Virus record (IMG/VR): IMGVR_UViG_2541047697_000005
Reading direction: 5' to 3' (one strand)
From: a virus
Lineage: Duplodnaviria; Heunggongvirae; Uroviricota; Caudoviricetes
DNA: 44,762 nucleotides
A model generated the notes under the pieces. It searched no databases. It had not been told where the DNA came from and saw only the letters and a program-made list of their open reading frames with translations. Position numbers and translations under genes: made by a program. Shown piece by piece: positions 9,173 through 29,619 of the stretch. How positions within the stretch are numbered: the stretch's first letter is position 1; each line of letters begins with the position of its first letter.

Positions 9173-9185
9173 CCTGAACCAGGAA

Positions 9186-10694
9186 TTATTCTTCGGACTG
9201 GTCGTCGGTGTGCTGCGGCTCCTGTCGTTTCGTTGCGGCACTGCTGCCTCCTTTATCACTGGCCGGATCGGTATCAAATACCAGTTCCAGCTTGCGGTTT
9301 TCATCAATTTCGGCCTTGCGCCGACGTTTGACATCATCCGGATTACGACCACCAGCACGTACCCAGTCTGATTCTGTCGCCGCTCCACCACGAATCTGGA
9401 TTTTCCAGGCCTCAGCCTCCTTAACAGGGTCAATCCACGGCATCACTGGTCCGGAATACACCGCGGTATACAGTGAAGAACGGTCAAGATCGCGGGGTAA
9501 CCTGATAACACCGGATGCCACAGCCTGTTTCAGCCATGCACGATACATCGGGCGGGTGACGGCACCAATAAACCAGTCCTGCAGGATCAGGTAGCCATCA
9601 GTAGACTCAACCAGCTCCTGACGCTGGGCGCTGTAAGTGCCGTTATAGTTGCGCGCTGTACTGGAAAAACTCAGACGACTGCCAGCCGCCACTGCACGCA
9701 ACTGACCATTACGAAAAGTTTCAAGATTAGGATTGGGGCGATCCGACTTCACCATTCCAATTTCTTCGCCGGGTTTCAGATCGTCGTAAATAATGCCTGG
9801 CTGAATGGTAAGCTCGCGTTCCTTATCCTTGCTGCCATTACCATCCGGTTCATAGCTCTGCCCGTCGCCTTTGCGGATGTACATCCCCAGAGCAGCGGCG
9901 ATCCTTGCTGCAGTCAGCTCAGAATCTTCATACTCTTTCAGGGCACTGAGGCGGATCAGCACACCGGACAACAAAGACGTCCCGCGCATCTGGTGCAGAC
10001 GGCGAACAAATTTAAGATGCAGCATTCGCTCTGCATCCACTTCTTTGGTTTCCATCTGCCGTCCGGATACGGGACGGCTTTTATACACCAGATATTTTTC
10101 GGGACGCCCCCAGTCATCAACAAACACGCCCTGATTCAGCCTGTTGCTCTCATCACTGGTCATGGGAATAAAGTCTGGCTCGAGCGCCTCCAGCCAGAAA
10201 TGAACACCGGCAGAAGGCGTCAGGCTGTTTATGCGCCCGGAAACCATCTGGGCAAACACCTCACCATCGCGCAGCCAGGTACGCAGCATCAGACGTTCCA
10301 GCATCGGACGGGTAAACTGCCCGGTGACTTCCGGGCTGACAGACCATTCACTCCATCGGGTGCGAATCTCCGCTGCCAGATCACGGGCAATGGCCCCATT
10401 GCGTAATACCGGATGTGGCTCGACAATAATCCCGTTTTTCCCCACCACCCGTTCTTCCAGCTTGTCAAATACACCAATAACCAGATCGTGGTTGTTATCA
10501 AGGTAACGGGCCTGCTCACGTAACGACACGGCCCCGTACTGGCTTAACTGGTCGGCAGTTCGGTTTTCCCGCCGGGCTTTGTGTGTCCGCGTCGTTTTTA
10601 CGGCCTCATAAGCCTGGATCACCGCACGGGAACGCAGCCTTGCCGCTTTCCATCCTGGTGAAAAAACGCCAATCACATCATCAAGAATTGCCAT
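9186..10694 (-). CDS. Portal protein (lambda gpB family)
   Basis: About 500 aa between W and capsid; start at ATG 10694 overlapping W stop (ATGA); ORF-track start 10766 is probably too far upstream. Confidence 0.8.
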   Translation of the reverse strand: MAILDDVIGVFSPGWKAARLRSRAVIQAYEAVKTTRTHKARRENRTADQLSQYGAVSLREQARYLDNNHDLVIGVFDKLEERVVGKNGIIVEPHPVLRNGAIARDLAAEIRTRWSEWSVSPEVTGQFTRPMLERLMLRTWLRDGEVFAQMVSGRINSLTPSAGVHFWLEALEPDFIPMTSDESNRLNQGVFVDDWGRPEKYLVYKSRPVSGRQMETKEVDAERMLHLKFVRRLHQMRGTSLLSGVLIRLSALKEYEDSELTAARIAAALGMYIRKGDGQSYEPDGNGSKDKERELTIQPGIIYDDLKPGEEIGMVKSDRPNPNLETFRNGQLRAVAAGSRLSFSSTARNYNGTYSAQRQELVESTDGYLILQDWFIGAVTRPMYRAWLKQAVASGVIRLPRDLDRSSLYTAVYSGPVMPWIDPVKEAEAWKIQIRGGAATESDWVRAGGRNPDDVKRRRKAEIDENRKLELVFDTDPASDKGGSSAATKRQEPQHTDDQSEE

Positions 10695-10912
10695 CAGAAC
10701 CTCGCCAGCCGGTACCCGGGATGCCCCCGTCGTCGTGTAATCAGAGTCGCAAGGCGGCGCTCCCACTCCTGCCGTCCCTGCCGGATCTCAGATAAGTTTT
10801 CCATGGTCATCTGCTGACCATTAAAAGTGACGGATTTTCCGTCCAGCACCGCCATTTCAGCTTCCGTATAACGCTGAATCATGGCTTCAATATCATTCTG
10901 ATTCATAACCAT
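10694..10912 (-). CDS. Head-tail joining protein W-like
   Basis: 72 aa ending ...TRRRGHPGYRLARF, resembling lambda gpW C-terminus; between terL and portal. Confidence 0.65.
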   Translation of the reverse strand: MVMNQNDIEAMIQRYTEAEMAVLDGKSVTFNGQQMTMENLSEIRQGRQEWERRLATLITRRRGHPGYRLARF

Positions 10913-12015
10913 CCTCCGGAAGTCAGCCAGGGGTTAACATCGTCAGTTACTGTTTTCTTCCGTTTTTGTTTTTTAACAGGCGTGGGTACCGGTTCCGGTG
11001 AGGGTGACGGTTCGGTACTGTCCGGGACACACTCCAGCCAGGTTTCCCGGCTCGCCCACTCCGGTGCATCCGGCCAGCGGATCTTTTCGTATCCATGCAG
11101 AATGACCAGCGCCTCGGCATACACCATCAGGTCAAAAGCTTCGTTGGCACCGCGACCCGGCTTACTCCATTTCCCGTCACTGCTCCGCTCTTCATACGTC
11201 AGTTCGTCGTAAAACCAGCTCCCCAGCCAGTCAGGGAAATGCACATAGCCTGGACCTGGCGAGTCACGCCATAACGCGTTATTCACCCGGTCTTTCAGGG
11301 CATCCGTCTGAAGAAGCCAGAGCGGCACATCACCTGCGGCCTGCGCCCGGCGGCCCGTTCGTCCGGTGTTATCAGGGAATGTACGGCTGATCAGTTTTGC
11401 GCGCCGGATGCTGTCGCCCTTAAACAGGTAAATACGTTTACCAAGGCCATCACGACGGCAACGACGCCAGAATTTATAGGCATTATCAGTGACCCCGTCT
11501 TCACCGCCGGAGTCCACCGCCATTGCCATCAGTCGCATTTGTTGAGAAGGATCGGAGGCCAGCGGCCAGCTTTTATGAAAAACATCCGTCAGCAGGACAT
11601 CCCAGTCTTCCGGATAGCTGGCCGGATCAATTCGCTGGCTCTCCCCGTCGCAGTCACTGCGCAATGACTGCGTGATGTTGTAACGATCAATAATCCAGCG
11701 TTCGCCACGGCTGCCATAGCCCGTTACCTGAACCACAAAACGGCGATGACGTCCCGCCTGCACATCCACTGTCGCCACAAGGAAATTAACGCCATCCGGA
11801 ACACTGCGGGAAGGAACTGGCTCTGCCCGCTGCTCAAGCAGTTCACTTTTTCGTTGCTCCATGCTGGCACGAGGAAGATAAGGCAATCCCCAGTCGGTGT
11901 TGATAACCGCCCTGAGTGTTTCTTCGCTTCCTGTCGCTTCATACTCCTGTTCTGCAGTCAGTAATTTGTAAACCAGTTGCGCCCAGGTCTGATACGCAGC
12001 AGCTGGCCCTTCCAT
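10903..12015 (-). CDS. Terminase large subunit, C-terminal (nuclease) half; gene interrupted by the integrated element
   Basis: 370 aa starting MEGPAAAYQTWAQLV; lambda gpA-like C-terminal region; the ATG lies in the 7-bp repeat at the insertion junction; no ATPase domain in this ORF. Confidence 0.8.
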   Translation of the reverse strand: MEGPAAAYQTWAQLVYKLLTAEQEYEATGSEETLRAVINTDWGLPYLPRASMEQRKSELLEQRAEPVPSRSVPDGVNFLVATVDVQAGRHRRFVVQVTGYGSRGERWIIDRYNITQSLRSDCDGESQRIDPASYPEDWDVLLTDVFHKSWPLASDPSQQMRLMAMAVDSGGEDGVTDNAYKFWRRCRRDGLGKRIYLFKGDSIRRAKLISRTFPDNTGRTGRRAQAAGDVPLWLLQTDALKDRVNNALWRDSPGPGYVHFPDWLGSWFYDELTYEERSSDGKWSKPGRGANEAFDLMVYAEALVILHGYEKIRWPDAPEWASRETWLECVPDSTEPSPSPEPVPTPVKKQKRKKTVTDDVNPWLTSGGWL

Positions 12016-12019
12016 CCAG
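12013..12019. repeat. Left junction core CATCCAG (att core copy 1)
   Basis: Identical 7-mer at 22737-22743; terL homology ends here and AT-rich element DNA begins. Confidence 0.6.
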
Positions 12020-12261
12020 GAAGAAGTAAATAAAAGGTAACTAAATGATTATAAGGTACTATTTAGTTGTAACCCCATCCACATAGTCCAAGATTTAGTA
12101 CCTGCCTAAGCGATAAAAAAAAGAAAAAGGTAGCAATATTAATTAAAAGCTGAATACGCCGCCATGCATTAACACGATGACGCTGCCCGACTGCGCGGCC
12201 TTCTGTTTACCTTCTGGTAGTCTGATTCCGGTGGCACGGCGGATCACGGCGTCGTTCATTA

Positions 12262-12747
12262 TCATGCCTGTTTTACATCCTCATTCACTGCGTCATTTTT
12301 TACCATCCGGCTGATAATCTGATTACACAAATCGTCAATAATTGACTGCACTCTGTTTACTGCCATCGGTTTAAGCCCAGCATCACGTGCCAGAATACTG
12401 GGGAGTTTTTCCAGTTCCTCGCTTACGATTTCCCCCCATATAGCCATCTCTTTTCGCACATCATCGGCGGGTATGAGTTGCGCCGTTTCCTGTTCGAACT
12501 TGAGGCGCTCACGTTCGGACTGATACCAGGCCTTACGGTCGTGTGGCTCCATTTCTTCCAGTGATGCCGGAACGGGAAGATCAAGAAAACAGGTCAGAAT
12601 GTCAGTCACCCGATAGAGTTTCAGCTTGTCATGTCCTCCGGCTGGATGGATATTTTTTAGCCTTGCCGCCGCAGTCTGGCGACATATTCCCGCTATCGCC
12701 GCCAGCTGGTTAATGTTCAGCATCAGATTTTTCAGTTCCCGATCCAT
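12262..12747 (-). CDS. Small terminase subunit (Nu1-like) encoded by the element
   Basis: Start at ATG 12747 (MDRELKNLMLNINQLAAIAGI, HTH-like); KAWYQSERERLKFEQETAQLIP parallels KDWYQSENERIKLEKEQRKLIP of the helper terS at 23735-24274; a cos-like site lies about 150 bp upstream. Confidence 0.7.
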   Translation of the reverse strand: MDRELKNLMLNINQLAAIAGICRQTAAARLKNIHPAGGHDKLKLYRVTDILTCFLDLPVPASLEEMEPHDRKAWYQSERERLKFEQETAQLIPADDVRKEMAIWGEIVSEELEKLPSILARDAGLKPMAVNRVQSIIDDLCNQIISRMVKNDAVNEDVKQA

Positions 12748-12900
12748 ACCCGCTCCAGAATGTTTTAAACATGCATCTTGCAAATATCTTTTAAAAAAGG
12801 TCAAAAAACGCGCCGCATGTTGAACACAAAATAAGCAAAATTAACATACCAAAAATAAAAATACTTAAAATTCAATACAATAGAAAGATGATGATGACGA

Positions 12901-12975
12901 ATGAAAATGCAAAAACTAGCCTTTTTCCGCGCCGCTGCCGCCCCGTGGTAAGGCCACTCCACCGGGAGGACCCGT
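12901..12975 (-). repeat. cos-like site copy 1 (element, upstream of element terS)
   Basis: About 75 bp near-identical to 15438-15511 and 24416-24488; minus strand contains ACGGGGCGGCAGCGGCGCGGAAAAAG, resembling the lambda cos junction as I recall it. Confidence 0.65.
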
Positions 12976-12998
12976 AAAAAAAGGCGGCTATCGCCGCC
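12976..12998 (-). terminator. Rho-independent terminator after element capsid gene
   Basis: Minus strand GGCGGCGATAGCCGCC hairpin followed by TTTTTTT. Confidence 0.55.
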
Positions 12999-13005
12999 CT
13001 TGTTG

Positions 13006-14919
13006 TCATGCTCCACTCGATTTCAGTAGTCCACGATAATCGAGGGCCGCAACACCTGCATCTATGCGCACCTTCCAGGCGACACCATCAACAGTAAAGC
13101 CCTCCTGCTCCTCAAGATATGGCGTATCAATACCATCAAGATAAGCGACCTCTATCGTGTCCATCCCTTTCGCTGCGGCTACATACCACTCCTTGTTATT
13201 GTTCTTATCAAGACGTGGCTCAACAATAACCTCAGCCATATCTTTCACCACGTTAATGATGCCGGGGTTCTGATTGATAGTGCCATCACCATCAACCGGA
13301 AAGAGTGATGACGATGACAGAATGGCGCGATGTGCGGCAGACTCCAGCGCGGCGGGGACCAGGACAAATGCGGGGGTAATATTCAGCGAATCACCGTTAG
13401 CGTCCTCCTGGAGGCGCATCAGCTTACGGGCTTCGTTAAGCCCCTCCATGTCCATATCCTTCGCAATAAGATTTTTATGATCGGCATGGAATAGCGCCTT
13501 ACCATCCGTGAATTTGCCGTTGCCGGTTAACAGGAGATACACCAGATTACCTACTGTTCTGGCGGCTGCACGCCCCATCGCCATGGGGATTGTAGTTAAC
13601 TGGGTCAGGTCATCGTTAATAATGGCCTGGCGGGTAACGGAAAAAATATTCCCGTATGTGGCCAGCGCAATAGGTACGCCTTTATCTCTGGTGGTGATGT
13701 ATTTATATTCCGCACCTTCCGGTACTTTATCCAGCTTTGAAAAACCATTCAGACCAACACGCTTTGCTTCATGAAAGTTTGAAAGCGATCCGCTACGCGT
13801 CCACTTCTGGAACGTTTCGCCGCTGTCCTGCCAGCCTTTCAGAACTGATTTTTCAGCACCACCAGCCAGAATATGAGAAAAATCGCTGCTGCTGTGTGTG
13901 AAAGCTGCATTAACGACCTGCGAGCGATTTAAAAAACCGCCAACACTGATACCACGATCCGTTAGTGATGCCTGGGCCATTTCAAAAAGGCTCATCATCG
14001 CGTAAGGATTTCCCCGCTCTGGGCGTTCATACCCGAGACGAGAATAAAGCCCCTGACGAATTGCATCACCTGTTATGTTCCCGTTACCGGCATAAATATG
14101 AGCCGGGGTATTTTTATTTGATGGCGTGGACTCGCGCCCCATCTCGTTCAACAACTTTTCACGGGCCATCTCCGGTGTACATGATGCATCTTCCAGGCAC
14201 GCCATTTTGATCCCGTCGTAACGACTGCCGAACAGGCTAAACACTTCACTTATTCCGTTGATGCGCTTCTGTTCATTACCAGCAATATTGGCTGCTCCCT
14301 GTGGCGGGGTAATCATTCCTTTAATGGTTTCCGGCATGTGTGAAAAATCTCCTGTGCGTTTCGATTCAATTCGCGCCATTGCTCTGACGGATGGCAACAA
14401 TTCATCAGCAAAACCGTGCTTAAGGCATTCTTTCCCGTCCATCCAGGTTTCATCTTCCAGCATGGCGGTAATTTCCTGTGCTGATTTGCCCGTTTTTCTG
14501 GCATAAGCAGGGATTAACACGGTTTCCACCTTATCCAGCAAATCAGCATAATCACGCATATCACCAGCATTTCCGCCAGAGATACCCCACGGCTTATGTA
14601 TCATCATCATGGCGTTTTCCGGCATCACAACACGATCGCCAGCCATTGCGACAACCGAAGCCATTGAAGCCGCAACACCATCGATATAAACCGTAATTTC
14701 TGCCGGATGATTCCGTAACAGGTTATAGATGGCGATGCCTTCAAACACGTCACCACCTGGCGAATGGATCCGCAGGTCGATATGTGAGACATCGCCCAGG
14801 GCTTTCAGGTCTTCCGCAAACTGCTTCGCGGTGATACCGAAGCCGCCAATTTCTTCATAGATGGATATTTCTGCCGCTCCGCGAACACCCGCCGCCTTAA
14901 TGGTGTACCAGTGATTCAT
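13006..14919 (-). CDS. Second prohead protease-major capsid fusion protein (element copy)
   Basis: 637 aa colinear with the helper protein at 7214-9172; shared blocks include SPGGDVFEGIAI, MIHKP, EKLLNEMGRESTPSNKNTPAHIYAGNGN, RQAIINDDL, TIEVAYL. Confidence 0.8.
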   Translation of the reverse strand: MNHWYTIKAAGVRGAAEISIYEEIGGFGITAKQFAEDLKALGDVSHIDLRIHSPGGDVFEGIAIYNLLRNHPAEITVYIDGVAASMASVVAMAGDRVVMPENAMMMIHKPWGISGGNAGDMRDYADLLDKVETVLIPAYARKTGKSAQEITAMLEDETWMDGKECLKHGFADELLPSVRAMARIESKRTGDFSHMPETIKGMITPPQGAANIAGNEQKRINGISEVFSLFGSRYDGIKMACLEDASCTPEMAREKLLNEMGRESTPSNKNTPAHIYAGNGNITGDAIRQGLYSRLGYERPERGNPYAMMSLFEMAQASLTDRGISVGGFLNRSQVVNAAFTHSSSDFSHILAGGAEKSVLKGWQDSGETFQKWTRSGSLSNFHEAKRVGLNGFSKLDKVPEGAEYKYITTRDKGVPIALATYGNIFSVTRQAIINDDLTQLTTIPMAMGRAAARTVGNLVYLLLTGNGKFTDGKALFHADHKNLIAKDMDMEGLNEARKLMRLQEDANGDSLNITPAFVLVPAALESAAHRAILSSSSLFPVDGDGTINQNPGIINVVKDMAEVIVEPRLDKNNNKEWYVAAAKGMDTIEVAYLDGIDTPYLEEQEGFTVDGVAWKVRIDAGVAALDYRGLLKSSGA

Positions 14920-15125
14920 TGCTCACCCCCAGATGCAAAACCATTCTTATCAAGCCACGCGTTAACTGCGTGTCTGACAATCTGCGCCACACCTGGTAAT
15001 GGTTGGCCAGGATGATGATTTATGTGGTCGATCCTGTACTGCTTAAGGCGCATAACGGTCTGCGCATCCAGATGAACGGAACCACCTCTTACCTCGCCTG
15101 TGTTCAGGTCATTAATACAATTCAC
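14916..15125 (-). CDS. Hypothetical 69-aa protein translationally coupled to the element capsid gene
   Basis: GTG start with AAGAGGAAG RBS; its stop overlaps the capsid ATG; no family recognised. Confidence 0.45.
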   Translation of the reverse strand: MNCINDLNTGEVRGGSVHLDAQTVMRLKQYRIDHINHHPGQPLPGVAQIVRHAVNAWLDKNGFASGGEQ

Positions 15126-15227
15126 AGTAACTTCCTCTTACTGACTAAACTGCGTGCATTATTGATCGATAAAAGTGGTAGATAAACATATTTCTATCAT
15201 AAAAACAGATTAGTCAGATTCAGACAC

Positions 15228-15250
15228 AAAAAAGCCGGAGAAAATCCGGC
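15228..15250 (-). terminator. Rho-independent terminator
   Basis: Minus strand GCCGGATTTTCTCCGGC hairpin followed by TTTTTTGT. Confidence 0.5.
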
Positions 15251-15285
15251 ATAAATATCCCGCCATCTGAACACGTTTTGACACT

Positions 15286-15511
15286 GGCAACTCCACCTGG
15301 CAGGTGAAAAACATATTTATTTATATATTTCAATTAATTACAAACTGGTCTAATGACAGGGCGAAAAAAATATTGTACAGGTGAAAACGGAAATATTTTT
15401 TAATTATCAATAAATTATCACACATGCTGCCGCCGCCATGAAAATGCAAAAACCAGCCTTTTTCCGCGCTGCTCCCGCCCCGTGGCAAGGCCACTCCATC
15501 GGGAGGACCCG
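15286..15511 (-). repeat. cos-like site copy 2 (element), extended ~225 bp duplicate of the helper cos region
   Basis: Near-identical to 24265-24488 including the AT-rich segment and a stub of the terS 5' end (GTGGAGTTGCCAGTGTCAAAACGTG vs helper ATGGAGTTGCTTATGTCAAATGTG). Confidence 0.65.
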
Positions 15512-15512
15512 T

Positions 15513-15534
15513 AAAAAAGCCGGATTGTTCCGGC
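15513..15534 (-). terminator. Rho-independent terminator after ssb
   Basis: Minus strand GCCGGAACAATCCGGC hairpin followed by TTTTTT. Confidence 0.55.
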
Positions 15535-15550
15535 TTCTGTCACTCGTTGC

Positions 15551-15973
15551 TTAAAACGGTATGTTATCCCCGTACGGATCATCATTTCCCGCCTGTTGTT
15601 TTGCCCTGTTCAGCGCGTCAGTAGCCTGGCCCTGCTGGCCTTTTTTGCCGCCCGGTCGCGCCGTTCTCGCACTGATTACGCTGTCTGCGATGACCTGCCA
15701 GCCCTGCCGCGTTTCGCCGTTCTGGCCTGTCCACTGGCTTACCTGCATGTTACCCGCCACGCTCACCAGTTCGCCTTTATGGTGTCTGGCCAGTGCGTCG
15801 GCCTGTCTGCCAAACGCCAGGACGGATAACCACATCGTCGCCGTTCCGTCATCTGCCTGGCTGCACGGCAGGGAAACCGCCATACTCGCCATCGCCATTG
15901 TTGTGCCCTTGCTGGTGGTCTTTAACTGCGGGTCAGCCACCAGCCGCCCGTAAGCCGCTATCTGTGCTGTCAT
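15551..15973 (-). CDS. ssb: Single-stranded DNA-binding protein
   Basis: 140 aa, Gly/Gln-rich tail ending DDPYGDNIPF (SSB C-terminal acidic motif). Confidence 0.75.
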   Translation of the reverse strand: MTAQIAAYGRLVADPQLKTTSKGTTMAMASMAVSLPCSQADDGTATMWLSVLAFGRQADALARHHKGELVSVAGNMQVSQWTGQNGETRQGWQVIADSVISARTARPGGKKGQQGQATDALNRAKQQAGNDDPYGDNIPF

Positions 15974-16227
15974 GCTGTATGCTCTCCGGTTTTAACGTTG
16001 ATGGTTGTCACCTGTTCCGCTTCGGCAATCTCCCGATCTGTCAGCGTGGCAAAGTTTGCCGCCGCTGTGGTCATGAATGCGCTTATCAGTTCGGGATGTG
16101 CTTTCGCGTATCCCTCTCCCGTGTTGCGGTCGATGATTTTTATCGCCATCCTCAGCCAGTGCTCTGTAAGGTCAATGGCGCGGTTATGTGGTTTCTTCTG
16201 ATTGTTAAATTTTCCTGATGTGTGCAT
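15970..16227 (-). CDS. Hypothetical protein
   Basis: 85-aa ORF overlapping ssb start; no family recognised. Confidence 0.4.
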   Translation of the reverse strand: MHTSGKFNNQKKPHNRAIDLTEHWLRMAIKIIDRNTGEGYAKAHPELISAFMTTAAANFATLTDREIAEAEQVTTINVKTGEHTA

Positions 16228-16261
16228 TTTTATTTTTACCCCCCTCGTTTAAAAAGTTTTG

Positions 16262-16505
16262 AGTTGTACCTCCCCTTGTCTACCTTATCTACCTTGCTGG
16301 CCCCAATGCCAGTAATGGCGCGGCTTTCAGCGGGGTAGAGTGCTTTTATCCACTATCTACCCCGTATCTACCTCCCTGTCTGATTCAGGTAAAATCAGGT
16401 AGAGAGGGTAGATAGTAGGTAGATAGTGAAAAAATGCTGTCTACCTAAGTTAATGTACTGAATTAAATGTATTTTCCTTTACTCAGGTAGACAGGGTAGA
16501 CAGCC
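16262..16505. repeat. Iteron array, putative replication origin of the element
   Basis: At least 10 copies of an 8-9 bp unit RGGTAGAYA / TRTCTACC in both orientations, immediately downstream of the primase-helicase gene. Confidence 0.65.
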
Positions 16506-16516
16506 ATTGCAAAAAA

Positions 16517-18271
16517 TTATAAAAACGCGTCGCAATCGTCTGTTGTTATTGCGTTAGTCTGCGTTACCCCCTTAACTTTCCGCGTAATATATTCATGTCC
16601 GTAAACTTTCGCGGCGGGCTTCATAGCCTTGCCAAAGTCATTTACGTTCAGCGGTTTGGTCCTGCCTGCGTAAGCCATAAACGCCAGATAGACACGGTAA
16701 AGGCTGTTCCTGGTTGTGTACTTCACGGAATCACCACCGCCGCCCATCATCAGGCCACGCGCTTCCTCCAGAAAATTCAGGAACTGGCAAAACTCAATAA
16801 CTGGATCCGTTTGCTGCTTTATCGCCAGTGCTTCATCACCGTCACGCTGTTCCAGTAGTAAAGCCCGTGCCTTCTCAGGGTCGGTAAAGTTCGCCAGCAA
16901 TCGGCGGATAATAACGGGGATTTCAGCCGCAATCTTTTCCGGTAGCTCCCTGTCTTTTTCGGCCTCACTGACGATATTGTCGAAACGGAAAATCACGCGA
17001 CGACGTGCCACACCTCCGGCACGTTCGGTGAATATCATCGGGTTGTTGTTGGTCGCCAGCACCACCGCCCTGATTACCGCCGTGAAACGCTTTTCATATT
17101 TCGGGTTAATTTCCACGGGGTCGCCGCCTGTGATTTTCTTGATGCCCGTTCCTTCTCCTGTATATTTCGGCTGGTCAGCCAGGACGATAAGACGACTCCC
17201 GACAACCTGCGCACGTCCACCAGCATCATCAAGCGATGTCATTTCAGCGCTTACCGTGTTCTGTTTCCCTGCCAGAAGGCTGGCTATGTGTGTGAATGTA
17301 CTTTTACCGCTCCCGCCGTCTCCGGTGGCCTCAATAAACATCTGCCAGTCGTACCGGTTCGCCATAATCATGTACAGCGCGGCACATATACGCATCATCT
17401 TGCGCGGGTCTTTTCCGGCTGCGTGCTCAAGCCATTTATGAAAGTTTGGCGCGTTATCGCGGATGTTTTCCCCTGGTGCTGGTAGCGTGTACTCAATGCC
17501 GTTGTGCGTGGTGATCCAGTTCTCCGGCGTGTGCGGGGAAAATTCCCCCGTTTTCAGGTCAAGCGCACCATTGGCGAACGGCAGCAAATCGCCGGACGGC
17601 TCGCCCATTGGTTCGGCAATAACTTTTAACGCTTCCACGGCGTTATTGATTACGCGCTTGCTGAAAGTGGCCCTGTGCTCTGAATAGATCGCCACCATTT
17701 CGCGGCTAAGTTCCATTGTGCTGACCTGACACCATACCCCGCCGCGCCATACGTGAACGATTTCACTTTCAGGATGTACGCAAACGCCATCAAAGCGATC
17801 GGCTAGCAGCTGCGCGCGCTCACTGTCCGCCATCTGCGAAAGTTGCGCCTTTTGCTTTACCGGAAGCTCAATGACCAGACCATCAGAAAGATTCTGGCGC
17901 TCACGGGCCAGATATTCGCGCCAGTTCTGCACCTCCTGGCCGTGCATACCCTCAGGATAAAAATTTGCATCCTGTACGCCTGCCGCCGCCAGCTTCTGAC
18001 CAATCGCCTTTATCATTACTGGCGCAAGATATCCGGCCCTGAATATGCGCACGGATTTTCTGCCTTCCGGCACAATTTGCAGCTTATCCAGTTCGGATAA
18101 CTGCTGCTCCCCAAGCCACACAGGAGGCTCATTATCTCCGGCCATACGCGCGTCATGTTCCTGCCATTGTTTTGCGTGTGACCAGGCATCACTACCCGCA
18201 AAAATAATTACCTCTGTGTCTTTGTTTTTTATTCCGCGAGGCTGTTTTTTTACGTTCGGTGCCAGTTTCAT
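16517..18271 (-). CDS. Primase-helicase (P4 alpha / D5-family)
   Basis: 584 aa with Walker A GDGGSGKST; P4-type primase C-terminal region; adjacent iterons. Confidence 0.8.
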   Translation of the reverse strand: MKLAPNVKKQPRGIKNKDTEVIIFAGSDAWSHAKQWQEHDARMAGDNEPPVWLGEQQLSELDKLQIVPEGRKSVRIFRAGYLAPVMIKAIGQKLAAAGVQDANFYPEGMHGQEVQNWREYLARERQNLSDGLVIELPVKQKAQLSQMADSERAQLLADRFDGVCVHPESEIVHVWRGGVWCQVSTMELSREMVAIYSEHRATFSKRVINNAVEALKVIAEPMGEPSGDLLPFANGALDLKTGEFSPHTPENWITTHNGIEYTLPAPGENIRDNAPNFHKWLEHAAGKDPRKMMRICAALYMIMANRYDWQMFIEATGDGGSGKSTFTHIASLLAGKQNTVSAEMTSLDDAGGRAQVVGSRLIVLADQPKYTGEGTGIKKITGGDPVEINPKYEKRFTAVIRAVVLATNNNPMIFTERAGGVARRRVIFRFDNIVSEAEKDRELPEKIAAEIPVIIRRLLANFTDPEKARALLLEQRDGDEALAIKQQTDPVIEFCQFLNFLEEARGLMMGGGGDSVKYTTRNSLYRVYLAFMAYAGRTKPLNVNDFGKAMKPAAKVYGHEYITRKVKGVTQTNAITTDDCDAFL

Positions 18272-18555
18272 TTCTTACCCCCTGCGACCAGCATTTCACG
18301 GATTTTGCGGATATAGCTTGCTGCACGTTTCTGATTTACGGCTTTACGATGGCCCACCAGCTTAAAATCACGCCGGAACTGATAAACAGGCATCACGCAG
18401 TCGTAGCTGTACCCATCACGGCGGTAAGTAACGCACCGTCCGGCAATACTTTTAATCGTTACCGTGCCGCCGTAGTTATCCCGGAAAATATCGCCGGGGC
18501 GGATTTCAGGCCGAGCGGGGCCGCTGGCAGTAAAGCCAGAAATTTTCTGTTTCAT
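18268..18555 (-). CDS. Hypothetical protein
   Basis: 95-aa ORF, stop overlaps primase start. Confidence 0.45.
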   Translation of the reverse strand: MKQKISGFTASGPARPEIRPGDIFRDNYGGTVTIKSIAGRCVTYRRDGYSYDCVMPVYQFRRDFKLVGHRKAVNQKRAASYIRKIREMLVAGGKK

Positions 18556-18560
18556 GGTTT

Positions 18561-18770
18561 TTATTCCTCTGCGCGGGTCTTGTTGTGTATTTCCATAACC
18601 GCGTTTAATTCATCAATAACCGGGGTTAACAGAGTGCTGAAAGCAGAAAATAAATCCCCCCCCTGTTCGGCATGAACTTCGGTTAATTTAATTAATACCG
18701 CTTTCATTTCCAGTGCCCGATTTAATGCATTCTCAGAATGAATAAGAACATCGAAAGGGATTTCATTCAT
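18561..18770 (-). CDS. Hypothetical protein
   Basis: 69-aa ORF in operon context. Confidence 0.4.
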   Translation of the reverse strand: MNEIPFDVLIHSENALNRALEMKAVLIKLTEVHAEQGGDLFSAFSTLLTPVIDELNAVMEIHNKTRAEE

Positions 18771-18996
18771 GGCTCACCACCTCCGGGAATTTTCTTCTGT
18801 AACGCGCCTCTGCAACATATTCCGCATAGTCCGACGCAATATTGAGAATATCGCTACCCGTTCCTGAATGTTCGGCGGTTTCCAGTAAAAAACATGCAGC
18901 TTTTACCATGTCAGCAACACATAACAGCGCAATATCTGTATCTTCCGGTGCGCCATCAAATTCCTGTTTCAGGGCATTAAAACGATCATCACGCAT
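18763..18996 (-). CDS. Hypothetical protein, possible downstream part of a gene split at a poly-G tract
   Basis: 77-aa ORF whose ATG sits 2 nt after a G12 run; one extra G fuses it with the ORF at 18969-19232. Confidence 0.4.
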   Translation of the reverse strand: MRDDRFNALKQEFDGAPEDTDIALLCVADMVKAACFLLETAEHSGTGSDILNIASDYAEYVAEARYRRKFPEVVSHE

Positions 18997-19232
18997 AACC
19001 CCCCCCCCCCATTTTCACAATCCGTAATCAGGATGGCTTTAGCCTCATTCAGCGCCATATCAGCGGTAAGCTGTGCGTAGGCCAGCGAATGGGGGATTAT
19101 TGCCCCTGTATATTCCGGCTCTCTGGTAATGTGTTTTTCTGCGGTTGCTGCCGTGCATGAAATATCAATCAGCGCGTGCATCAGCGTTCTGATAGCTTCG
19201 GCGGCTGCGTCCTGACGGGGGTTATTGCACAT
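18969..19232 (-). CDS. Hypothetical protein, possible upstream part of a gene split at a poly-G tract
   Basis: 87-aa ORF translating the G12 run as GGGG and ending 9 codons later. Confidence 0.4.
   Translation of the reverse strand: MCNNPRQDAAAEAIRTLMHALIDISCTAATAEKHITREPEYTGAIIPHSLAYAQLTADMALNEAKAILITDCENGGGGLCVMIVLMP
18999..19010. repeat. Homopolymer C12 (G12 on coding strand)
   Basis: 12 consecutive C on plus strand. Confidence 0.95.
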
Positions 19233-19488
19233 GGCGCACCTCCTGACGAATACGGGCGGCGAATACCATCACGCAGCCAGCCGGAGATTGCTGGCGTGCT
19301 TCCTGTTCGCTGGTGGCCTCGATGGTAATCACGCGCGGCTGTGCCGTGCTCAGGGCGATAAAACGCCAGATGTATTTATTCAGGTTGTGCGAGTCCCGCC
19401 CTTGCGGGTGTGTGGTATGATTTCTCATAGCTACCTCGATACGCTTTCTATCGTTGGTGGTTAGAAGCCCTGCGAGTGGTAACGACAC
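19222..19488 (-). CDS. Hypothetical protein (first gene of the element leftward operon)
   Basis: 88-aa ORF starting next to the divergent regulatory region. Confidence 0.4.
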   Translation of the reverse strand: MSLPLAGLLTTNDRKRIEVAMRNHTTHPQGRDSHNLNKYIWRFIALSTAQPRVITIEATSEQEARQQSPAGCVMVFAARIRQEVRHVQ

Positions 19489-19525
19489 TTGCGGGGCTTT
19501 GTCTTTTCATCGATTACCTTAACAA

Positions 19526-19608
19526 AGGTGTCAGCCACTATATTAGTAACAGGTGTCAGCCACGTCAATGGTGTTTTTCCGTTTTCTTGTGTGTATACTG
19601 TCAGCCAC
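19526..19608. promoter_or_regulatory. Divergent regulatory region with three direct repeats GTCAGCCAC and a TATACT -10 element
   Basis: GTCAGCCAC at 19530, 19555, 19600; first two extended as AGGTGTCAGCCAC; TATACT at 19594-19599 abuts the third repeat, 30 bp before the ATG at 19630. Confidence 0.5.
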
Positions 19609-19629
19609 CTAATAACGAGGGAATCCGAT

Positions 19630-19809
19630 ATGGCAACGAAAGCAGTTAATGGAAAATCCAAAAAACTTGAGGCTCGAGTACCCCACGCAATAGCTGACGC
19701 TGTAGAAAATTTAAAGGAAGAAGGCGAAAGCACAGGGCAATTTATCGTTTCGGCACTTGAAGGCGAGATCAAACGCCGCCAGCGTCGCAAGGCCAAAGAG
19801 CAGGAGTAA
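19630..19809 (+). CDS. Small ribbon-helix-helix-like DNA-binding protein, candidate regulator of the element
   Basis: 59 aa MATKAVNGKSKKLEARVPHAIADAVENLKEEGESTGQFIVSALEGEIKRRQRRKAKEQE; ACGAGGGA RBS; downstream of operator repeats. Confidence 0.5.
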   Translation: MATKAVNGKSKKLEARVPHAIADAVENLKEEGESTGQFIVSALEGEIKRRQRRKAKEQE

Positions 19810-19866
19810 CCATCACCAGCGCCGTGGTGCGGTGAACTGTGGCGCACAGGGCTACAGGTATCTACG

Positions 19867-20064
19867 ATGACTGACAAATCATTAAAGAAATTATCTTCAT
19901 CCAGGAAAAAACAACGCAAAAACGCGGTAAGCGAACAAGAACAGGAGAGATTCGCGCCATGTGCGTTTGTCCTTGAGAAGTTCTTAAAAGAGTACAGGCG
20001 CACAAAAATGGGGCTATATACCTGGAAAACATCGCAGCATGGCGATGCTAAAGAGCAGGAATAG
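19867..20064 (+). CDS. Hypothetical small basic protein
   Basis: 65-aa ORF following the RHH gene; weak RBS. Confidence 0.3.
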   Translation: MTDKSLKKLSSSRKKQRKNAVSEQEQERFAPCAFVLEKFLKEYRRTKMGLYTWKTSQHGDAKEQE

Positions 20065-20291
20065 CCCACCAGCAAGCCAGCACACTGATCACATTGCCAA
20101 CCGGATGTAATCACGGCATAGTAATCAGCGCTCATGCGTTGGGGATAACGTGTAGCTTGTGTCGAATGGCCACCGTAGCAGGTGGCCTTTGTTTTGCCTG
20201 TTATCCGGCAATTGTGGCGCTTCTCCACACGGTTGATATAATCCCCCTGCACAGATTCATTTTTTGCGCAGTAGGTTAATTGTTCGCAAGG

Positions 20292-20322
20292 GCGCTCCGG
20301 CAACGGGGCGCTTTTTGTTTTT
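20292..20322 (+). terminator. Rho-independent terminator
   Basis: GCGCTCCGGCAACGGGGCGC hairpin followed by TTTTTGTTTTT. Confidence 0.55.
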
Positions 20323-20480
20323 ACCCACCAGCACAATAAAAATCCTCTTTTCCCATTTTTGTAAAATTTCATGCTTTCCGGACGACTGGCCATATATCTT
20401 TTTTAGCAGAAGATTTTGCCTTGCTGGTTGGTAGCTTCCCGGTCCAACACGATGTACCGTATAATCAGCACTGCGAGTGG

Positions 20481-21059
20481 TTACTGAATACGCTCACCAA
20501 AGTAAAACTCAGGCTGATATTCACGTATCAGCCTTTTTTCTTCTTCCTCCAGCTCACGCTTTTTGCGCTTACAGGCCTGTAGCTCCCTCCCCTTCTCGCT
20601 GGCACTTATCTGATATTGCTCTTTACGGCGAGAAAAATCCTGTAATGCGCCCCACGGGATACCATAAGCCCCCGTTTTTCTGATACCCGGTATCACATTT
20701 CTGAATACCCAGTTACTGAAACGATGAGCAAATGTGCCAGGCGTCGTTGCTTTGCGGCTGCGGGCTATTAGTTTGTAGAAACCTGACTCAGAGATAATGC
20801 TCATATTCTGATTTCCTCCTGGGGTGTAAGTTAAATTTACTCCCTTTTCATCATCATCAAGCATCTGCAACGCCGTACGCGAATTGGTTAGTTCCAGCGC
20901 AGCACAAACATCTTTTGCAACAAACCACGGATCGCCGTTCAGATACACCACACGAACATCCACGCCATCAAAGCGCAGAACGACAAGATCACGAATATCG
21001 CAGAATTTTTTTACTGAACGAGCGTACCCCTTGCCCGTCACGGCAATATTTTTATTCAT
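20481..21059 (-). CDS. Bro-N domain protein (antirepressor-like)
   Basis: N-terminus LVVLRFDGVDVRVVYLNGDPWFVAKDVCAALELTNSRTALQMLDDDEKG matches the Bro-N pattern. Confidence 0.7.
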   Translation of the reverse strand: MNKNIAVTGKGYARSVKKFCDIRDLVVLRFDGVDVRVVYLNGDPWFVAKDVCAALELTNSRTALQMLDDDEKGVNLTYTPGGNQNMSIISESGFYKLIARSRKATTPGTFAHRFSNWVFRNVIPGIRKTGAYGIPWGALQDFSRRKEQYQISASEKGRELQACKRKKRELEEEEKRLIREYQPEFYFGERIQ

Positions 21060-21117
21060 CGTTTTTTACCTCACATACAAAAAACCCCGCATTGCGTGCG
21101 GGGTATGAAAGATATTA

Positions 21118-21321
21118 TTAGTGGGGATTGGCCTGTTCTCGTTGTTTATCTAACCATGCCTCTACATCTCTACGGTGCCAGGTATGCCGCCGCCCAATTC
21201 TGAACGGTTGAGGAAAACCATTATTTTCATCTTTCCAGAAATTGATGAATGCGCTCATTGCCCCATAGCGCAAAATTTTCATTACGTCTTTAGTAAATAA
21301 AATATCTTCATTGGTATTCAT
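21118..21321 (-). CDS. alpA: AlpA-family transcriptional regulator/excisionase
   Basis: 67 aa; MKILRYGAMSAFINFWKDENNGFPQPFRIGRRHTWHRRDVEAWL resembles AlpA; adjacent to integrase. Confidence 0.75.
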   Translation of the reverse strand: MNTNEDILFTKDVMKILRYGAMSAFINFWKDENNGFPQPFRIGRRHTWHRRDVEAWLDKQREQANPH

Positions 21322-21333
21322 TTGCTGAACTCC

Positions 21334-22572
21334 TCAACCATTTACTATTCTCAAACCTTTCTTACCACAGGATCTATTAATTACCCCTTTTCTCGCCTCA
21401 TCAAAAAAATCGCCTACCCATTGCATCATAATTTTGCGTTGTTCTAAATAAGTAGTTCTATTATAAATATCTCTTATTTTATCACCACTTTTATGTGCTA
21501 ATGCAGCCTCAATAACATCAGGGTTAAAACCCTCCTCATTTAAAAGCGTACTCCACATCGAACGAAAACCATGTAACGTTACAATCCCTTTGAACTTGCT
21601 GGCAGCAATTGGAGTATTGATAGTATTCCTCCCCATAGGCGCGTCTTTGGTTCTGGATGAATAGAATACATAACGCCCTCTTTTAATTTCCTGCATTGTT
21701 CTGAGGATGCTAATGGCCTGTGATGACAGGGGCACAACATGTTCACGATGGCATTTCATTTTATGCTCAGGGATAACCCACAGACCAGCATCAAAATCTA
21801 TCTCTGCCCACTCTGCCTGGATCGCCTCTCCAGGCCTGACCATTGTCAATATCTGGAATAAAAGCGCATTGTGAGCTATTTGATACTTATGAGGCACACT
21901 ATCCCACCAACTCAGAAATTCAGGTAATTTTTCTATAGGTAACGCTGCTAATAATTTATTTTTCTTTCCAGTGAATGCTGTCTTTATTTTAAGCAATGGA
22001 TTTATTTTCAATGCACCACAATTTACAGCGTAATTCATAATTTCATTTAATCTTGATATTAATTTTTTTTGCAGCGCGTTTTTATCAGATACGGCATCCA
22101 GTGCCTTAATTGCTAATGGTGCTGTAATTTTATCTATGCTGTATTTACCAAAGAAAGGAACAAGATACTTATATACTTCATATTCGATATTATACAACGT
22201 AGGTTTCCTCAACTCCGATCCTTTTTTAAAAGCGAACCATGCATTAGCAACGACTTCAAATGTCTGTAGATTTTTTAGCGCCATCTCAATTTTACGATTT
22301 TTCTTCTCTGTCACTGGATCAACTCCACGTGCAATCATTCGCCGAAGTTCATCACGTACTTCCCGTGCTTCCGCGAGTGAGAATTCAGGAAAACGCCCTA
22401 TCGTGTATGTCTGCCGTTTCTTCGTTATCGGATGGCTATAACGGAAACGCCACACTTTCCCACCAGCTTTACTCACATTCAGCAATAAACCGAACCCATC
22501 ATAAACGGCATAGTCCTTTTCACGTGGTTTCATTCCCTTAACTTCAGTCACGGTTAATGGCTTTACCGGCAT
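21334..22572 (-). CDS. Tyrosine integrase (P4 / CP4-57 IntA type) of the element
   Basis: 412 aa with P4-int-like N-terminus (GKVWRFRYSHPITKKRQTYTIGRFPEFSLAEAREVRDELRR) and C-terminal catalytic region (HGFRSMWSTLL...); AT-rich; next to the junction. Confidence 0.8.
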   Translation of the reverse strand: MPVKPLTVTEVKGMKPREKDYAVYDGFGLLLNVSKAGGKVWRFRYSHPITKKRQTYTIGRFPEFSLAEAREVRDELRRMIARGVDPVTEKKNRKIEMALKNLQTFEVVANAWFAFKKGSELRKPTLYNIEYEVYKYLVPFFGKYSIDKITAPLAIKALDAVSDKNALQKKLISRLNEIMNYAVNCGALKINPLLKIKTAFTGKKNKLLAALPIEKLPEFLSWWDSVPHKYQIAHNALLFQILTMVRPGEAIQAEWAEIDFDAGLWVIPEHKMKCHREHVVPLSSQAISILRTMQEIKRGRYVFYSSRTKDAPMGRNTINTPIAASKFKGIVTLHGFRSMWSTLLNEEGFNPDVIEAALAHKSGDKIRDIYNRTTYLEQRKIMMQWVGDFFDEARKGVINRSCGKKGLRIVNG

Positions 22573-22733
22573 CTATCGCCCTCATTTTTTAGTCCGTCAT
22601 GTAGTCCTTTCAAGTCGATAACAAGCGATAAACTAACTCATTATCAAGTAAAGAGAGGAAACACCAAAAATCACAACTCATTGAAAAGACTACAAAACGA
22701 CACCAGAACATAAAAACAGGTAAGAAATGTACC

Positions 22734-23726
22734 CTACATCCAGAAACTGGCGATACGGGAGCGGCGCGGTTCACCGGAAACGTTGCCGTTACGATCAATG
22801 ACCTGACCTTCACGCAACCAGACTCCTGCACTATTGAGCTCACGCTTTTTCTCCGCAGTGATAATGCCGCTGCAGTGCGGGCAAAGTAGATACGCCGCCT
22901 CACTGGCTTTAAAGGGATCCGGTTCATTACGGTAGCCGGTCATGGCATCCATAGCTGGCTGAAAATATTCACCGCAGTGCGGACATGGCCAGTACCAGCG
23001 GCGGCGGTCACCACGATTGTAAAGGGAAAGAATACCAGTCGTCGGTGGCGCTTCATGAGGCGACTTACGTCGCCATTTGCTGTCGCAGATGTCACGTCCC
23101 GGCGAGCTCTCCACCAGAGTCATCCCGGCGGACATAAATGTGGTGGTACGTTTTGAGGCCAGGGAGAAACCATCACCCTCGCTGTCGATATTCTCCGGAA
23201 AACGGTCGTAATCGGTTAAGGCGACAAACCGGTAATCCGACGACGACATAATGTTGACCGAGGGCCAACCAATTTTAAGGAACGAGCCATCCCTGAACGT
23301 CTTATCATGGACATTATTGTCGTTACGACGTGGACTCATTCTTTTCTTTACCGCCGCACTGCTTCTGAACGTTCTGTCGAGGCGCTTTTTAGAATGCTCG
23401 CGGGCCTTATCTTCGGTCATCTGCACAACGAGCATGTCCGAAGGATCGCAAACGATGGTATAGACAATCCATCCATCGATCAGACCAATGGTCTTCCCTG
23501 TTCGCGCAGGACCAACAAAAATCACCGCATCGTATTCACGCGATGCCAGGCAGTTCATGGGCTCAATGATGTAGGGTGTCAGTTCAGGATCCCATGGCAC
23601 CGAGTTACCAGCCCCCTTGGGAACACGCATGAATTTTTTAACAGCCTCCGAAATCGGCATGCGACGTGGTGGGGAAAATCCTGCCGATATGTCCCTTCCC
23701 AAATTTCGGGCTGATGAAAAACCCAT
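22734..23726 (-). CDS. Terminase large subunit, N-terminal (ATPase) half; gene interrupted by the integrated element
   Basis: 330 aa with FVGPARTGKT P-loop, WPCPHCGEYF and LLCPHCSGII motifs paralleling lambda gpA; ends ...RIASFWM followed by stop in element-derived sequence. Confidence 0.8.
   Translation of the reverse strand: MGFSSARNLGRDISAGFSPPRRMPISEAVKKFMRVPKGAGNSVPWDPELTPYIIEPMNCLASREYDAVIFVGPARTGKTIGLIDGWIVYTIVCDPSDMLVVQMTEDKAREHSKKRLDRTFRSSAAVKKRMSPRRNDNNVHDKTFRDGSFLKIGWPSVNIMSSSDYRFVALTDYDRFPENIDSEGDGFSLASKRTTTFMSAGMTLVESSPGRDICDSKWRRKSPHEAPPTTGILSLYNRGDRRRWYWPCPHCGEYFQPAMDAMTGYRNEPDPFKASEAAYLLCPHCSGIITAEKKRELNSAGVWLREGQVIDRNGNVSGEPRRSRIASFWM
22737..22743. repeat. Right junction core CATCCAG (att core copy 2)
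   Basis: Identical 7-mer to 12013-12019; terL N-half reading frame terminates (TAG) 1 codon into element DNA. Confidence 0.6.
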
Positions 23727-23734: not shown

Positions 23735-24274
23735 CTAGAGACTCTCTCCTTCCTCATCAGGAATTAATTCAGCAGCACAAGCCTCGTAGGATTTTTCCTG
23801 AAGAGTGTATCGCAGGTCATCAATGGCCTGCTGTACAACGCCGACGGCCTGAGGAGTCAGGGCGCAATCGCGTTCAAGAACATCCGGAATTGTCTCCAGA
23901 ACCTGGACGACAGCCTTTCTCATGGACGAATAGACGATGACTACTTCATCAACTGGGATGAGTTTTCGCTGCTCCTTTTCCAGCTTGATCCTTTCATTTT
24001 CAGACTGGTACCAGTCCTTTCTCTCTTTCGGCTCCATACGGGATGGATCATGAACAGAGTCTGCTGCCTCATGCTTCACACTAAACAGGGCGGGCCCGAC
24101 ATGCTGCAGGGCGTAAACGGGGTTCCCCCTGACAGTCGCAGCCACAGGAGTGTTGGCCGCGAGGAGCCGTTTTTTTACTGTGTCCCGGTGAAGCCCAAAG
24201 GCCTCGGCGATTTTAAAAACACTCCAGTAATAAGCATCACCGATCCCGCTCACATTTGACATAAGCAACTCCAT
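23735..24274 (-). CDS. Small terminase subunit (Nu1-like) of the helper prophage
   Basis: 179 aa, N-terminal HTH-like region, immediately upstream of terL and downstream of cos. Confidence 0.75.
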   Translation of the reverse strand: MELLMSNVSGIGDAYYWSVFKIAEAFGLHRDTVKKRLLAANTPVAATVRGNPVYALQHVGPALFSVKHEAADSVHDPSRMEPKERKDWYQSENERIKLEKEQRKLIPVDEVVIVYSSMRKAVVQVLETIPDVLERDCALTPQAVGVVQQAIDDLRYTLQEKSYEACAAELIPDEEGESL

Positions 24275-24488
24275 CTGGCAGGTGAAAATCAGGTTTATTT
24301 ATATATTTCAATTAATTGCAAACTGGTCTAATGACAGGGAGAAAAAAATATTGTACAGGTGAAAAGAGAAATAACTTTTAATTATCAATAAATTACCAAA
24401 CATGCTGCCGCCGCCATGGAAATGCAAAAACTAGTCTTTTTCCGCGACGCTCCCGCCCCGTGGCAGGGGCCCCCACCGGGAGGACCCG
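24275..24488 (-). repeat. cos-like site copy 3 (helper prophage cos, upstream of terS)
   Basis: Minus strand contains CCACGGGGCGGGAGCGTCGCGGAAAAAG plus AT-rich segment, located between lysis-side genes and terS as in lambda. Confidence 0.7.
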
Positions 24489-24818
24489 ACAGCCTGACAG
24501 CCGTGACGAGCATCTGATACAGCGCTTTACATAATGGCATAGGAATAATTCAGAAGGACATCACAGCATGCCCACACAAATTAGTGTGAGTGTCCTGTTT
24601 CTTCCTACGCACAGGACTGACGAGCATGAGGGGAAAATACGCGAACCATAAATGCCTCATCTTCAGCAATGCAGCCGAACAGGACGATATTGTAAATTCA
24701 CCTAATTACGAGGACATTGCAGTAGTTGAATTGCAGCTCTGTATTAGCCTGCAGTGACAGAATGCGATATTGACTCTGTCACAGGTGAAATAGTTTGAAT
24801 GATTAGCAGTTATGGTGC

Positions 24819-26464: not shown

Positions 26465-26735
26465 GATGTTACCGTAGTATGTGAGTATCCATCGAATAGA
26501 CACCAAGCAAAAAAGCTCCCGAAGGAGCCTTCATTTTCACTTTTTTAAATCCAACGACAGACGGCTGGCATTTAAGTATTGTGAAATATTATCAAATGTA
26601 ATCATCATTGATTTACAAAAGATACATTTTGCCCCGAAAGGATTCATGTCAGAAACATCAAAAGATGATGTTCTATACTGGGAACCATGACAACACGGGC
26701 ATCTAAAGTGAATATGGTTTGTAATATTGTCTACC

Positions 26736-26948
26736 TCAAAGCGCCACTACATGAACAGCGGCAGGACCTTTAGGTCCGTTCTCAATACCAAATTCAACTT
26801 CCTGATTCTCAGTTAATGTTTTGAAATCGTTGCTCTGAATTGCTGAGAAATGGACAAACACATCTTTGCTGCCATCTTTCGGCGTGATGAAACCAAAACC
26901 TTTTTCAGGGTTAAACCATTTCACTAAACCAGTCATTTTGTTAGACAT
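26736..26948 (-). CDS. cspI: Cold-shock protein CspI-like
   Basis: [53 protein letters not shown]...: cold-shock domain with RNP motifs; long 5' leader. Confidence 0.85.
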
Positions 26949-29338: not shown

Positions 29339-29619
29339 GAGATTGTGGTGCTTTTTGTGGGAGTCATCCACTTACGCACTTTGTTTTGCCATGCCAGCAG
29401 TTAGCTTCTGCTGTAAAACTATTCATGCAGCAAACCTGCACTTCACCACAATGGTTAGCATACTTTTCCTGATTAAGATTTTGCCAAATATGCTGGCCAT
29501 TGTTTCATGTATTGGACCTCCTTAAATTTTATTAAAGAAATCCAATATTCACTACTCTGTCCGTATCTCTACTCAGGCATCAGCCTTCTTCGTTATCGTA
29601 TACAGACGAGCGATGAATT

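Follow-up and report, generated by a model that had tools for sequence, protein, structure and literature searches.

A PICI-type satellite splits the gpA-family large terminase gene of a Qin-like lambdoid prophage, in a probable helper-embedded configuration

Satellites residing inside the genome of their own helper have been described as helper-embedded phage-inducible chromosomal islands (HE-PICIs) by Tommasini, Mageeney & Williams (NAR Genom Bioinform 2023, PMC10111431), the founding member, 11capE, lying in capsid gene E of prophage 50icd. That survey, which took integrases scoring at least 400 bits against the 11capE integrase (Int), counted 491 HE-PICIs at 14 (or 15) att sites in nine lambda late-gene cognates, including the terminase sites A:Terminase_1:132 and :245/246. 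In the experiments on 11capE, the composite excised and replicated before the satellite excised, and a doubled TGTATTGC motif, ~81 bp upstream and ~132 bp downstream of the attP centre, was called unique to HE-PICIs (PMC10111431). Here we analyse a viral sequence of 44,762 nucleotides (IMG/VR record IMGVR_UViG_2541047697_000005, the whole of which is called the window below), in which an element of 10,724 bp (12020-22743, one core copy counted) separates the two halves of terL, the gene for the large terminase subunit. We propose, with a probability of roughly 0.8, that this element is a Gram-negative PICI-type satellite that was inserted by its own integrase into the gpA-family terL of a Qin-like lambdoid helper, i.e., that the locus is a helper-embedded PICI configuration. 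The initial annotation of this DNA had described an element of ~10.7 kb at this place and knew of no satellite family attached inside helper terL. On the concept it has to give way, as helper-embedded satellites are already published, those in Terminase_1-family terL included (2022/2023, PMC10111431). The gpA-type site and the integrase lineage alone appear new, and no earlier report of either was found in the literature searched.

All relevant genes of the terL/satellite region lie on the minus strand. The N-terminal half of terL (22734-23726, 330 aa, ending ...RIASFWM*, in full ...GEPRRSRIASFWM*) carries the GpA_ATPase domain, and the C-terminal half (10903-12015, 370 aa, starting MEGPAAAYQ, in full MEGPAAAYQTWAQLV) carries the GpA_nuclease domain. 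The heptamer CATCCAG is present at both junctions, the upstream, integrase-side copy at 22737-22743 and the downstream copy at 12013-12019. Read along the gene strand, the sequence at the upstream junction is TTC TGG ATG TAG, where the TAG is the first inserted codon, one past the core, and terminates the N-half as initially annotated. Excision of 12020-22743 in silico yields an open reading frame (ORF) of 2100 nt, encoding 699 aa without internal stop and reading ...GEPRRSRIASFWMEGPAAAYQTWAQLV... Against Pfam, the joined protein matches GpA_ATPase over residues 40-303 (profile 2-247 of 247) and GpA_nuclease over residues 325-643 (profile 1-294 of 294), and it is 99.3% and 99.7% identical across all 699 aa to the TerL of phages cdtI and Tritos, respectively. 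The in-frame, gpA-colinear joining of the halves put forward initially is thus confirmed over complete domains and against intact relatives. Based on the domain positions in the joined protein, the element enters at codon 330, just where the nuclease domain begins. The attB junction of the rejoined gene on the window plus strand is TTCCATCCAGAAACTGG, and the predicted attP junction of the satellite is TTACTTCTTCCTGGATGTAGGGTA. The 7-bp block represents a minimum rather than a mapped overlap, and the identity block may reach past it (CATCCAG R AA), the exact strand-exchange points not being fixed by the junction data. The C-half ORF begins at an ATG within the att core (12013-12015), so that a separate nuclease-domain polypeptide could in principle be made; inspection by eye showed no Shine-Dalgarno-like sequence in the element DNA before this ATG.

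Both the empty and the occupied states of this site are found in other genomes. Among 5,426 complete E. coli genomes searched with an 800-bp probe of the joined sequence (400 bp per side), 1,938 carry the empty site contiguously, many with 100% identity, and the same holds for the isolated phages HannyBb (99.9%), Tritos (99.6%), cdtI (98.6%) and mEp460 (81%). The occupied site was probed with 1,007 bp spanning the integrase gene (int) and the terL N-half, and 87 complete E. coli genomes cover this probe in full. The integrase gene, at a nucleotide identity of at least 90%, was found in 89 genomes at 98 places, so that practically every integrase copy abuts terL. The integrated junction also occurs in 32 IMG/VR contigs. 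Moreover, the core follows its target: terL of the window type (codons TTC TGG ATG) has CATCCAG at both junctions, and O157-type terL (TTT TGG ATG; protein 71.5% identical) has CATCCAA at both, i.e., the core changes together with a Phe codon of the target that is synonymous between the two terL types. A repeat that varies in step with its target is not a coincidence. The identical codon position (F-W-M then TAGGGTA) is targeted in Salmonella (locus L007, integrase 75% identical) and in Rahnella (L008, 67%). A composite of E. coli O121 RM8352 (L016, NZ_CP028110.1) combines the two types, with an O157-type satellite lying within a window-type terL between junctions at 7304 and 17501. Its cores are mismatched (CATCCAG vs CATCCAA), with a reciprocal -1/+1 nt difference at the junctions, which suggests that the exchanged segment runs into the following GAA. 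This satellite is without a helper-type cos block, and the locus looks like a heterologous integration from which excision could leave a frameshift. Altogether, the terL interruption is a real insertion, neither a chance arrangement nor a naturally split gene.

The locus resembles the HE-PICIs in several respects. The element lies inside terL with its core genes on the same strand as the terS, terL, portal, capsid and tail genes; the att identity block is short (the 7-bp CATCCAG), the target ORF is restorable, and attB is uninterrupted in reference genomes and phages. Its genes fall into the same four zones (int and AlpA-like; Bro-N; DUF4222-primase-ori-SSB; a late zone holding captured genes for capsid and terminase), and its primase shares 43% identity with the 11capE primase, indicating related replication modules. 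Unlike in the HE-PICIs, the target is a gpA-family terL, entered at about position 6 of Pfam GpA_nuclease; the label 'GpA' is absent from the published HE-PICI attL/attR files, Terminase_1:132 and :245/246 are the sole A-gene sites found in the supplement, and a search of the att alignment files with the attB string ttccatccagaaact gave no match. The integrase also differs, being 25% identical to 11capE Int (84.7 bits, under the 400-bit cutoff) and 23% identical to portal-241 Int (NZ_CP011416; 88 bits), these two being 54% identical to each other. Finally, the doubled TGTATTGC motif is absent from the expected positions even when one mismatch is allowed, and its window-wide counts are at chance level.

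The gene content was assigned by a Pfam/PHROG scan of the 10 larger ORFs of the element. The satellite runs in the direction of the helper late operon and is led by int and the AlpA-like gene. On the minus strand, int (21334-22572) encodes a 412-aa tyrosine integrase with Arm-DNA-bind_3, Phage_int_M and Phage_integrase domains, dedicated to the terL site, and is followed by a gene (21118-21321) for a 67-aa AlpA-like helix-turn-helix protein, a putative excisionase/activator. The AlpA assignment is of moderate strength: PHROG 66 ('excisionase and transcriptional regulator') matches with E=9e-7, Pfam HTH_17 stays under its cutoff, and an ORF of 65-69 aa follows int in most sampled relatives (70-73 aa in more distant ones). 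A terminator-like hairpin (21084-21104, minus strand) stands directly after this gene, and a 192-aa Bro-N domain protein of the anti-repressor family is encoded at 20481-21059 (minus strand). The replication zone, also on the minus strand, comprises a DUF4222 protein (18268-18555) immediately upstream of a 584-aa primase/helicase with D5_N, DUF5906 and Pox_D5 domains (16517-18271), an iteron origin at 16277-16502, where 9 of the 11 window matches to GGTAGAYA cluster within 226 bp in both orientations (1.4 expected in the whole window), and a 140-aa single-strand DNA-binding protein, SSB (15551-15973). A small conserved ORF (phrog_4934) lies between SSB and the late zone in transcription order. 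In that zone, again on the minus strand, a 637-aa fusion of ClpP-type prohead protease and major capsid protein (13006-14919) precedes the satellite small terminase, TerS (DUF1441/phrog_141; 12262-12804, with a likely start at the ATG at 12747). Pfam/PHROG showed no gene for TerL, portal, connector, tail or lysis among the satellite ORFs of the window. All satellite core genes are full length in the window, and neither att core is damaged. Domain hits and the repeat cluster bear out the integrase, primase-helicase and iteron origin that were first read from the letters.

By its layout, the element classifies as a Gram-negative PICI-type satellite: it has the size and the gene content of this class (10-20 kb; int, alpA, primase, ori; no lysis or tail genes), and mobilisation by a helper phage, the further mark of the class, would be expected of it. 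In the account of Fillol-Salom et al. 2018/2019 given in PMC10111431, the Gram-negative PICI EcCICFT073 is similarly ~11 kb long, has a unidirectional int-alpA-...-pri-ori order and a captured capsid gene, and depends on a lambdoid cos helper; as far as that account goes, PICIs of this type differ from the window element in that they occupy chromosomal sites and contact their helper in trans alone. Like cf-PICIs (e.g., EcCIEDL933; bioRxiv 10.1101/2022.09.08.507074), the element has its own capsid protein and small terminase. Unlike them, with their complete head/packaging module, it has the protease-capsid fusion and TerS alone and interrupts the TerL that it must use; EcCIEDL933 was rejected as a counterpart, the cf-PICI prototype being a different element type. 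A P4-like satellite was also considered and rejected, with no sid/psu/delta families among the Pfam/PHROG hits of the 10 larger ORFs and with a lambdoid helper bearing a gpA/DUF1441 terminase. EcCICFT073 reportedly redirects packaging with Rpp, whereas the window element carries a TerS paralogue. Beyond satellites, the skin element in sigK and the comK prophage of Listeria are mobile elements that split a gene, the ORF being rebuilt by timed, precise excision. In contrast to these, the gene interrupted here belongs to the helper phage and not to the host, and the intervening element would parasitise that very phage.

The helper carries a DUF1441 TerS (179 aa, 23735-24274, minus strand, Pfam), the gpA TerL, a lambda-family portal, a protease-capsid fusion, a tape measure protein, a lysozyme and a DicF RNA. 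Its cos (24400-24490, minus strand) was placed at GGGCGGGAGCGTCGCGG, ~170 bp upstream of terS, because the cdtI and Tritos genome records both start there. The satellite has two co-oriented cos-like sites on the minus strand, ~2.5 kb apart, in blocks 79-89% identical to the helper cos region. The first (15277-15511) is 89% identical to it over 235 bp, with cosN GGGGCGGGAGCAGCGCGG, a helper-type cosB and the helper-type stretch between cosN and terS. The second (12852-12974), with cosN GGGGCGGCAGCGGCGCGG, has the cosN-proximal part only, then non-helper sequence, and stands directly upstream of the satellite terS. Both are kept in the satellites of two other composites (L001 and L002). Satellite and helper TerS align over their C-terminal 75 aa alone (49% identity), the N-terminal parts not aligning, and the two protease-capsid fusions are 57% identical. 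TerS usually contacts TerL with its C-terminal part and recognizes DNA with its N-terminal part; if this layout holds, the alignment fits a satellite TerS that keeps the contact with helper TerL and recognizes different DNA. As judged from these alignments, the satellite is matched to its helper through a common cos, the TerS C-terminal region and the protease-capsid fusion.

As read from the locus, neither partner has a terL other than the interrupted one, which precise core-to-core recombination would restore. We propose a model in which induction would lead to replication of the composite prophage, the satellite being carried passively. Q-antiterminated late transcription coming from the lysis genes would then cross terS and the terL N-half and reach int together with the AlpA-like gene. 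The 161 bp that separate the stop of the N-half from int contain no terminator-like site, and the earliest hairpin on the minus strand is the one that follows the AlpA-like gene. Recombination at the core by Int and the AlpA-like protein would release the satellite and leave terL whole again. TerL would be made solely after this excision and would serve both partners, pairing with helper TerS on the helper cos and with satellite TerS on the satellite's own, and helper packaging would be held back until a freed satellite replicates from its own origin. From this arrangement we infer a coupling of helper packaging to satellite excision, as had been suggested in the initial annotation. Terminases of the lambda gpA type need their N terminus, which binds TerS, and their C terminus, which binds the prohead, on one chain; a split TerL is accordingly unlikely to work. 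The target would thereby control the packaging of both partners, with a satellite lacking TerL interrupting the enzyme that it is to borrow later.

Several observations weigh against this model. The attP junction of the excised form is absent from IMG/VR and JGI metagenome contigs, a negative that is uninformative as most of these records are integrated states, and the satellite is in no sequenced phage record. A weak sigma-70-like site upstream of int could permit independent control as opposed to late read-through, and two cos-like sites 2.5 kb apart are unaccounted for by a simple cos-to-cos packaging model. In addition, several composites elsewhere are decaying: in L002 (NZ_CP157152.1, strain UTAK-5), the helper terS is frameshifted and the satellite protease-capsid gene is split by ISEc23 (IS66-family; 8741-13196), L004 has IS1203 in the helper capsid gene, and L016 has an internal stop. 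Some composite copies may therefore be dead ends. Extended to the locus as a whole, a dead end would mean that the satellite, or its remnant, permanently inactivated the prophage by landing in terL and has since been inherited vertically, without any working switch. We consider this unlikely, although the missing attP junction in the viral and metagenome collections, the insertion sequences, frameshifts and internal stops in helper or satellite genes of related composites, and the frameshift that excision could leave in L016 all speak for it. The satellite core genes and att cores of the window are intact, as stated above; both terL halves are free of stops and frameshifts in the window and in L001, L002, L004 and L017, and are 99-100% identical to the TerL of viable phages; and the core co-varies with the target across lineages, the same site being used in three genera by diverging integrases. 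Intact genes, core co-variation and site use in three genera imply repeated, recent and active integration.

An improbable reading is that the element serves mainly as an anti-prophage weapon or a host-beneficial lock, blocking the virion output of a competing or resident prophage rather than using it as a helper. An interrupted terL would abolish packaging as long as the element is integrated, and satellites commonly interfere with their helpers (general knowledge; PMC10111431 discussion). Nevertheless, an element that lacks genes for TerL, portal, tails and lysis has to rely on a phage of precisely the helper type, and the helper-like cos blocks, TerS C-terminal region and capsid fusion form a signature of dependence, interference and dependence not being mutually exclusive. 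As for a terL that is naturally bipartite, or an assembly artefact, intron or intein, the halves are indeed separate intact ORFs and the C-half starts with ATG, but hardly any weight is left to these explanations by the single contiguous terL that is the norm in the 1,938 genomes and in related viable, isolated phages, the 99% identity of the joined TerL, the integrase, replicon and structural genes encoded by the intervening DNA, the recurrence of the same junctions in 87 finished genomes, and the absence by eye of a Shine-Dalgarno-like sequence before that ATG.

If the element is a satellite integrated into helper terL by its own integrase, the relatives of this integrase bear on how widespread such embedding could be. 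The contexts of its homologues were sampled (13, not a phylogeny), upstream-gene truncation being checked with PHROGs. Besides the window's own group, int comes straight after phage late genes, and in their orientation, in 12 of the 13 contexts (42-75% identity). In addition to the cut terL of Salmonella L007 and Rahnella L008, a gpA terL truncated at 334 aa precedes int in Klebsiella L022 (integrase 55% identical), whose helper has a Nu1-type TerS, gpA terL positions thus being found in helpers with DUF1441-type or Nu1-type TerS. The upstream gene is a truncated protease-capsid fusion in Salmonella L011 (62%; phrog_617, positions 15-393 of 626), a truncated tail-region gene in E. coli L009 (57%; phrog_1072) and a truncated PF09950-type capsid gene in Raoultella L014 (52%; phrog_264, positions 16-140 of 321). 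Head or terminase modules adjoin int in E. coli L012, L021 and L019 (42-50%) and in Pantoea L057 (45%), and a myovirus-type baseplate cluster in Enterobacter L023 (48%); Mu_F/portal_3 head modules are among these late-gene positions. The context of Pectobacterium L056 (41%) is chromosomal, and among chromosomal relatives the closest, at ~41% identity, are integrases of the CP4-57/IntA type and of Pectobacterium satellites. These contexts provisionally suggest a second late-gene-targeting clade, with many unreported helper-embedded att sites behind the relatives L009, L011, L012, L014, L019, L021, L022, L023 and L057. We lean, by a narrow balance, towards a second and separate integrase clade that evolved its late-gene tropism independently of the 11capE clade, in which case helper embedding would be convergent and far wider, Shiga toxin (Stx) prophages included. 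Its attraction to late genes would span Escherichia, Salmonella, Klebsiella, Rahnella, Raoultella, Enterobacter and Pantoea, and helper embedding would be a recurrent evolutionary solution rather than a quirk of one clade.

Two of the composites are Stx prophages. The interrupted terL lies in a Stx1a prophage in O157:H7 ECP19-198 (L004, NZ_CP066759.1) and in a Stx2 prophage in O145:H28 16003 (L017, NZ_AP024924.1), and RefSeq annotates the terL halves of both as pseudogenes. In strain Sakai, prophage Sp15 is reported to have an intact terminase (Asadulghani et al. 2009, where the insertion is not discussed), which indicates that the insertion in Stx1 prophages is strain-variable. No paper describing the terL insertion in these Stx prophages was found in the literature searched; a defence-island survey (PMC10121019), considered as an earlier description, proved not relevant. 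If the proposed model is true, satellite excision would gate the production of toxin-converting phage in the Stx1 and Stx2 prophages of enterohaemorrhagic E. coli. The insertion thus bears on the release of toxin-converting particles as well as on calls of prophage 'intactness'.

Between the Bro-N and DUF4222 genes lies a regulatory zone with a divergent small gene on the plus strand (19489-19809; phrog_949, YlcI/YnfO-like in the relatives' annotation). Three exact copies of GTGGCTGACA (19529-19608, minus strand) are located at the 5' end and upstream of this gene, before the leftward small genes; with up to one mismatch, the motif has 10 matches window-wide against 2.3 expected, and the repeats probably form the operator set of the satellite regulatory switch. 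An ATG-initiated, Cys/Ser-rich ORF of 310 aa in this zone (19461-20393, minus strand) was discarded as probably spurious, relatives annotating small genes on both strands there. No P4-type or PICI immunity RNA was found in the zone at the Rfam threshold. A TACCTTTT-like motif, with three co-oriented copies within ~115 bp on one side of the core and one at 15 bp on the other, was considered as an arm site and is not claimed, being weakly enriched window-wide.

In the helper, Rfam matches comprise the DicF RNA (39956-40007), a sok antitoxin RNA (33550-33724) and two cspA-type thermoregulator leaders (26709-27094 and 29604-29996), RNAs that mark it as a Qin/Kim-like lambdoid prophage. It also encodes a 545-aa protein (34277-35914, minus strand) with cytidine/deoxycytidylate deaminase and MafB19-like deaminase domains, which may be a toxin or an anti-phage moron.

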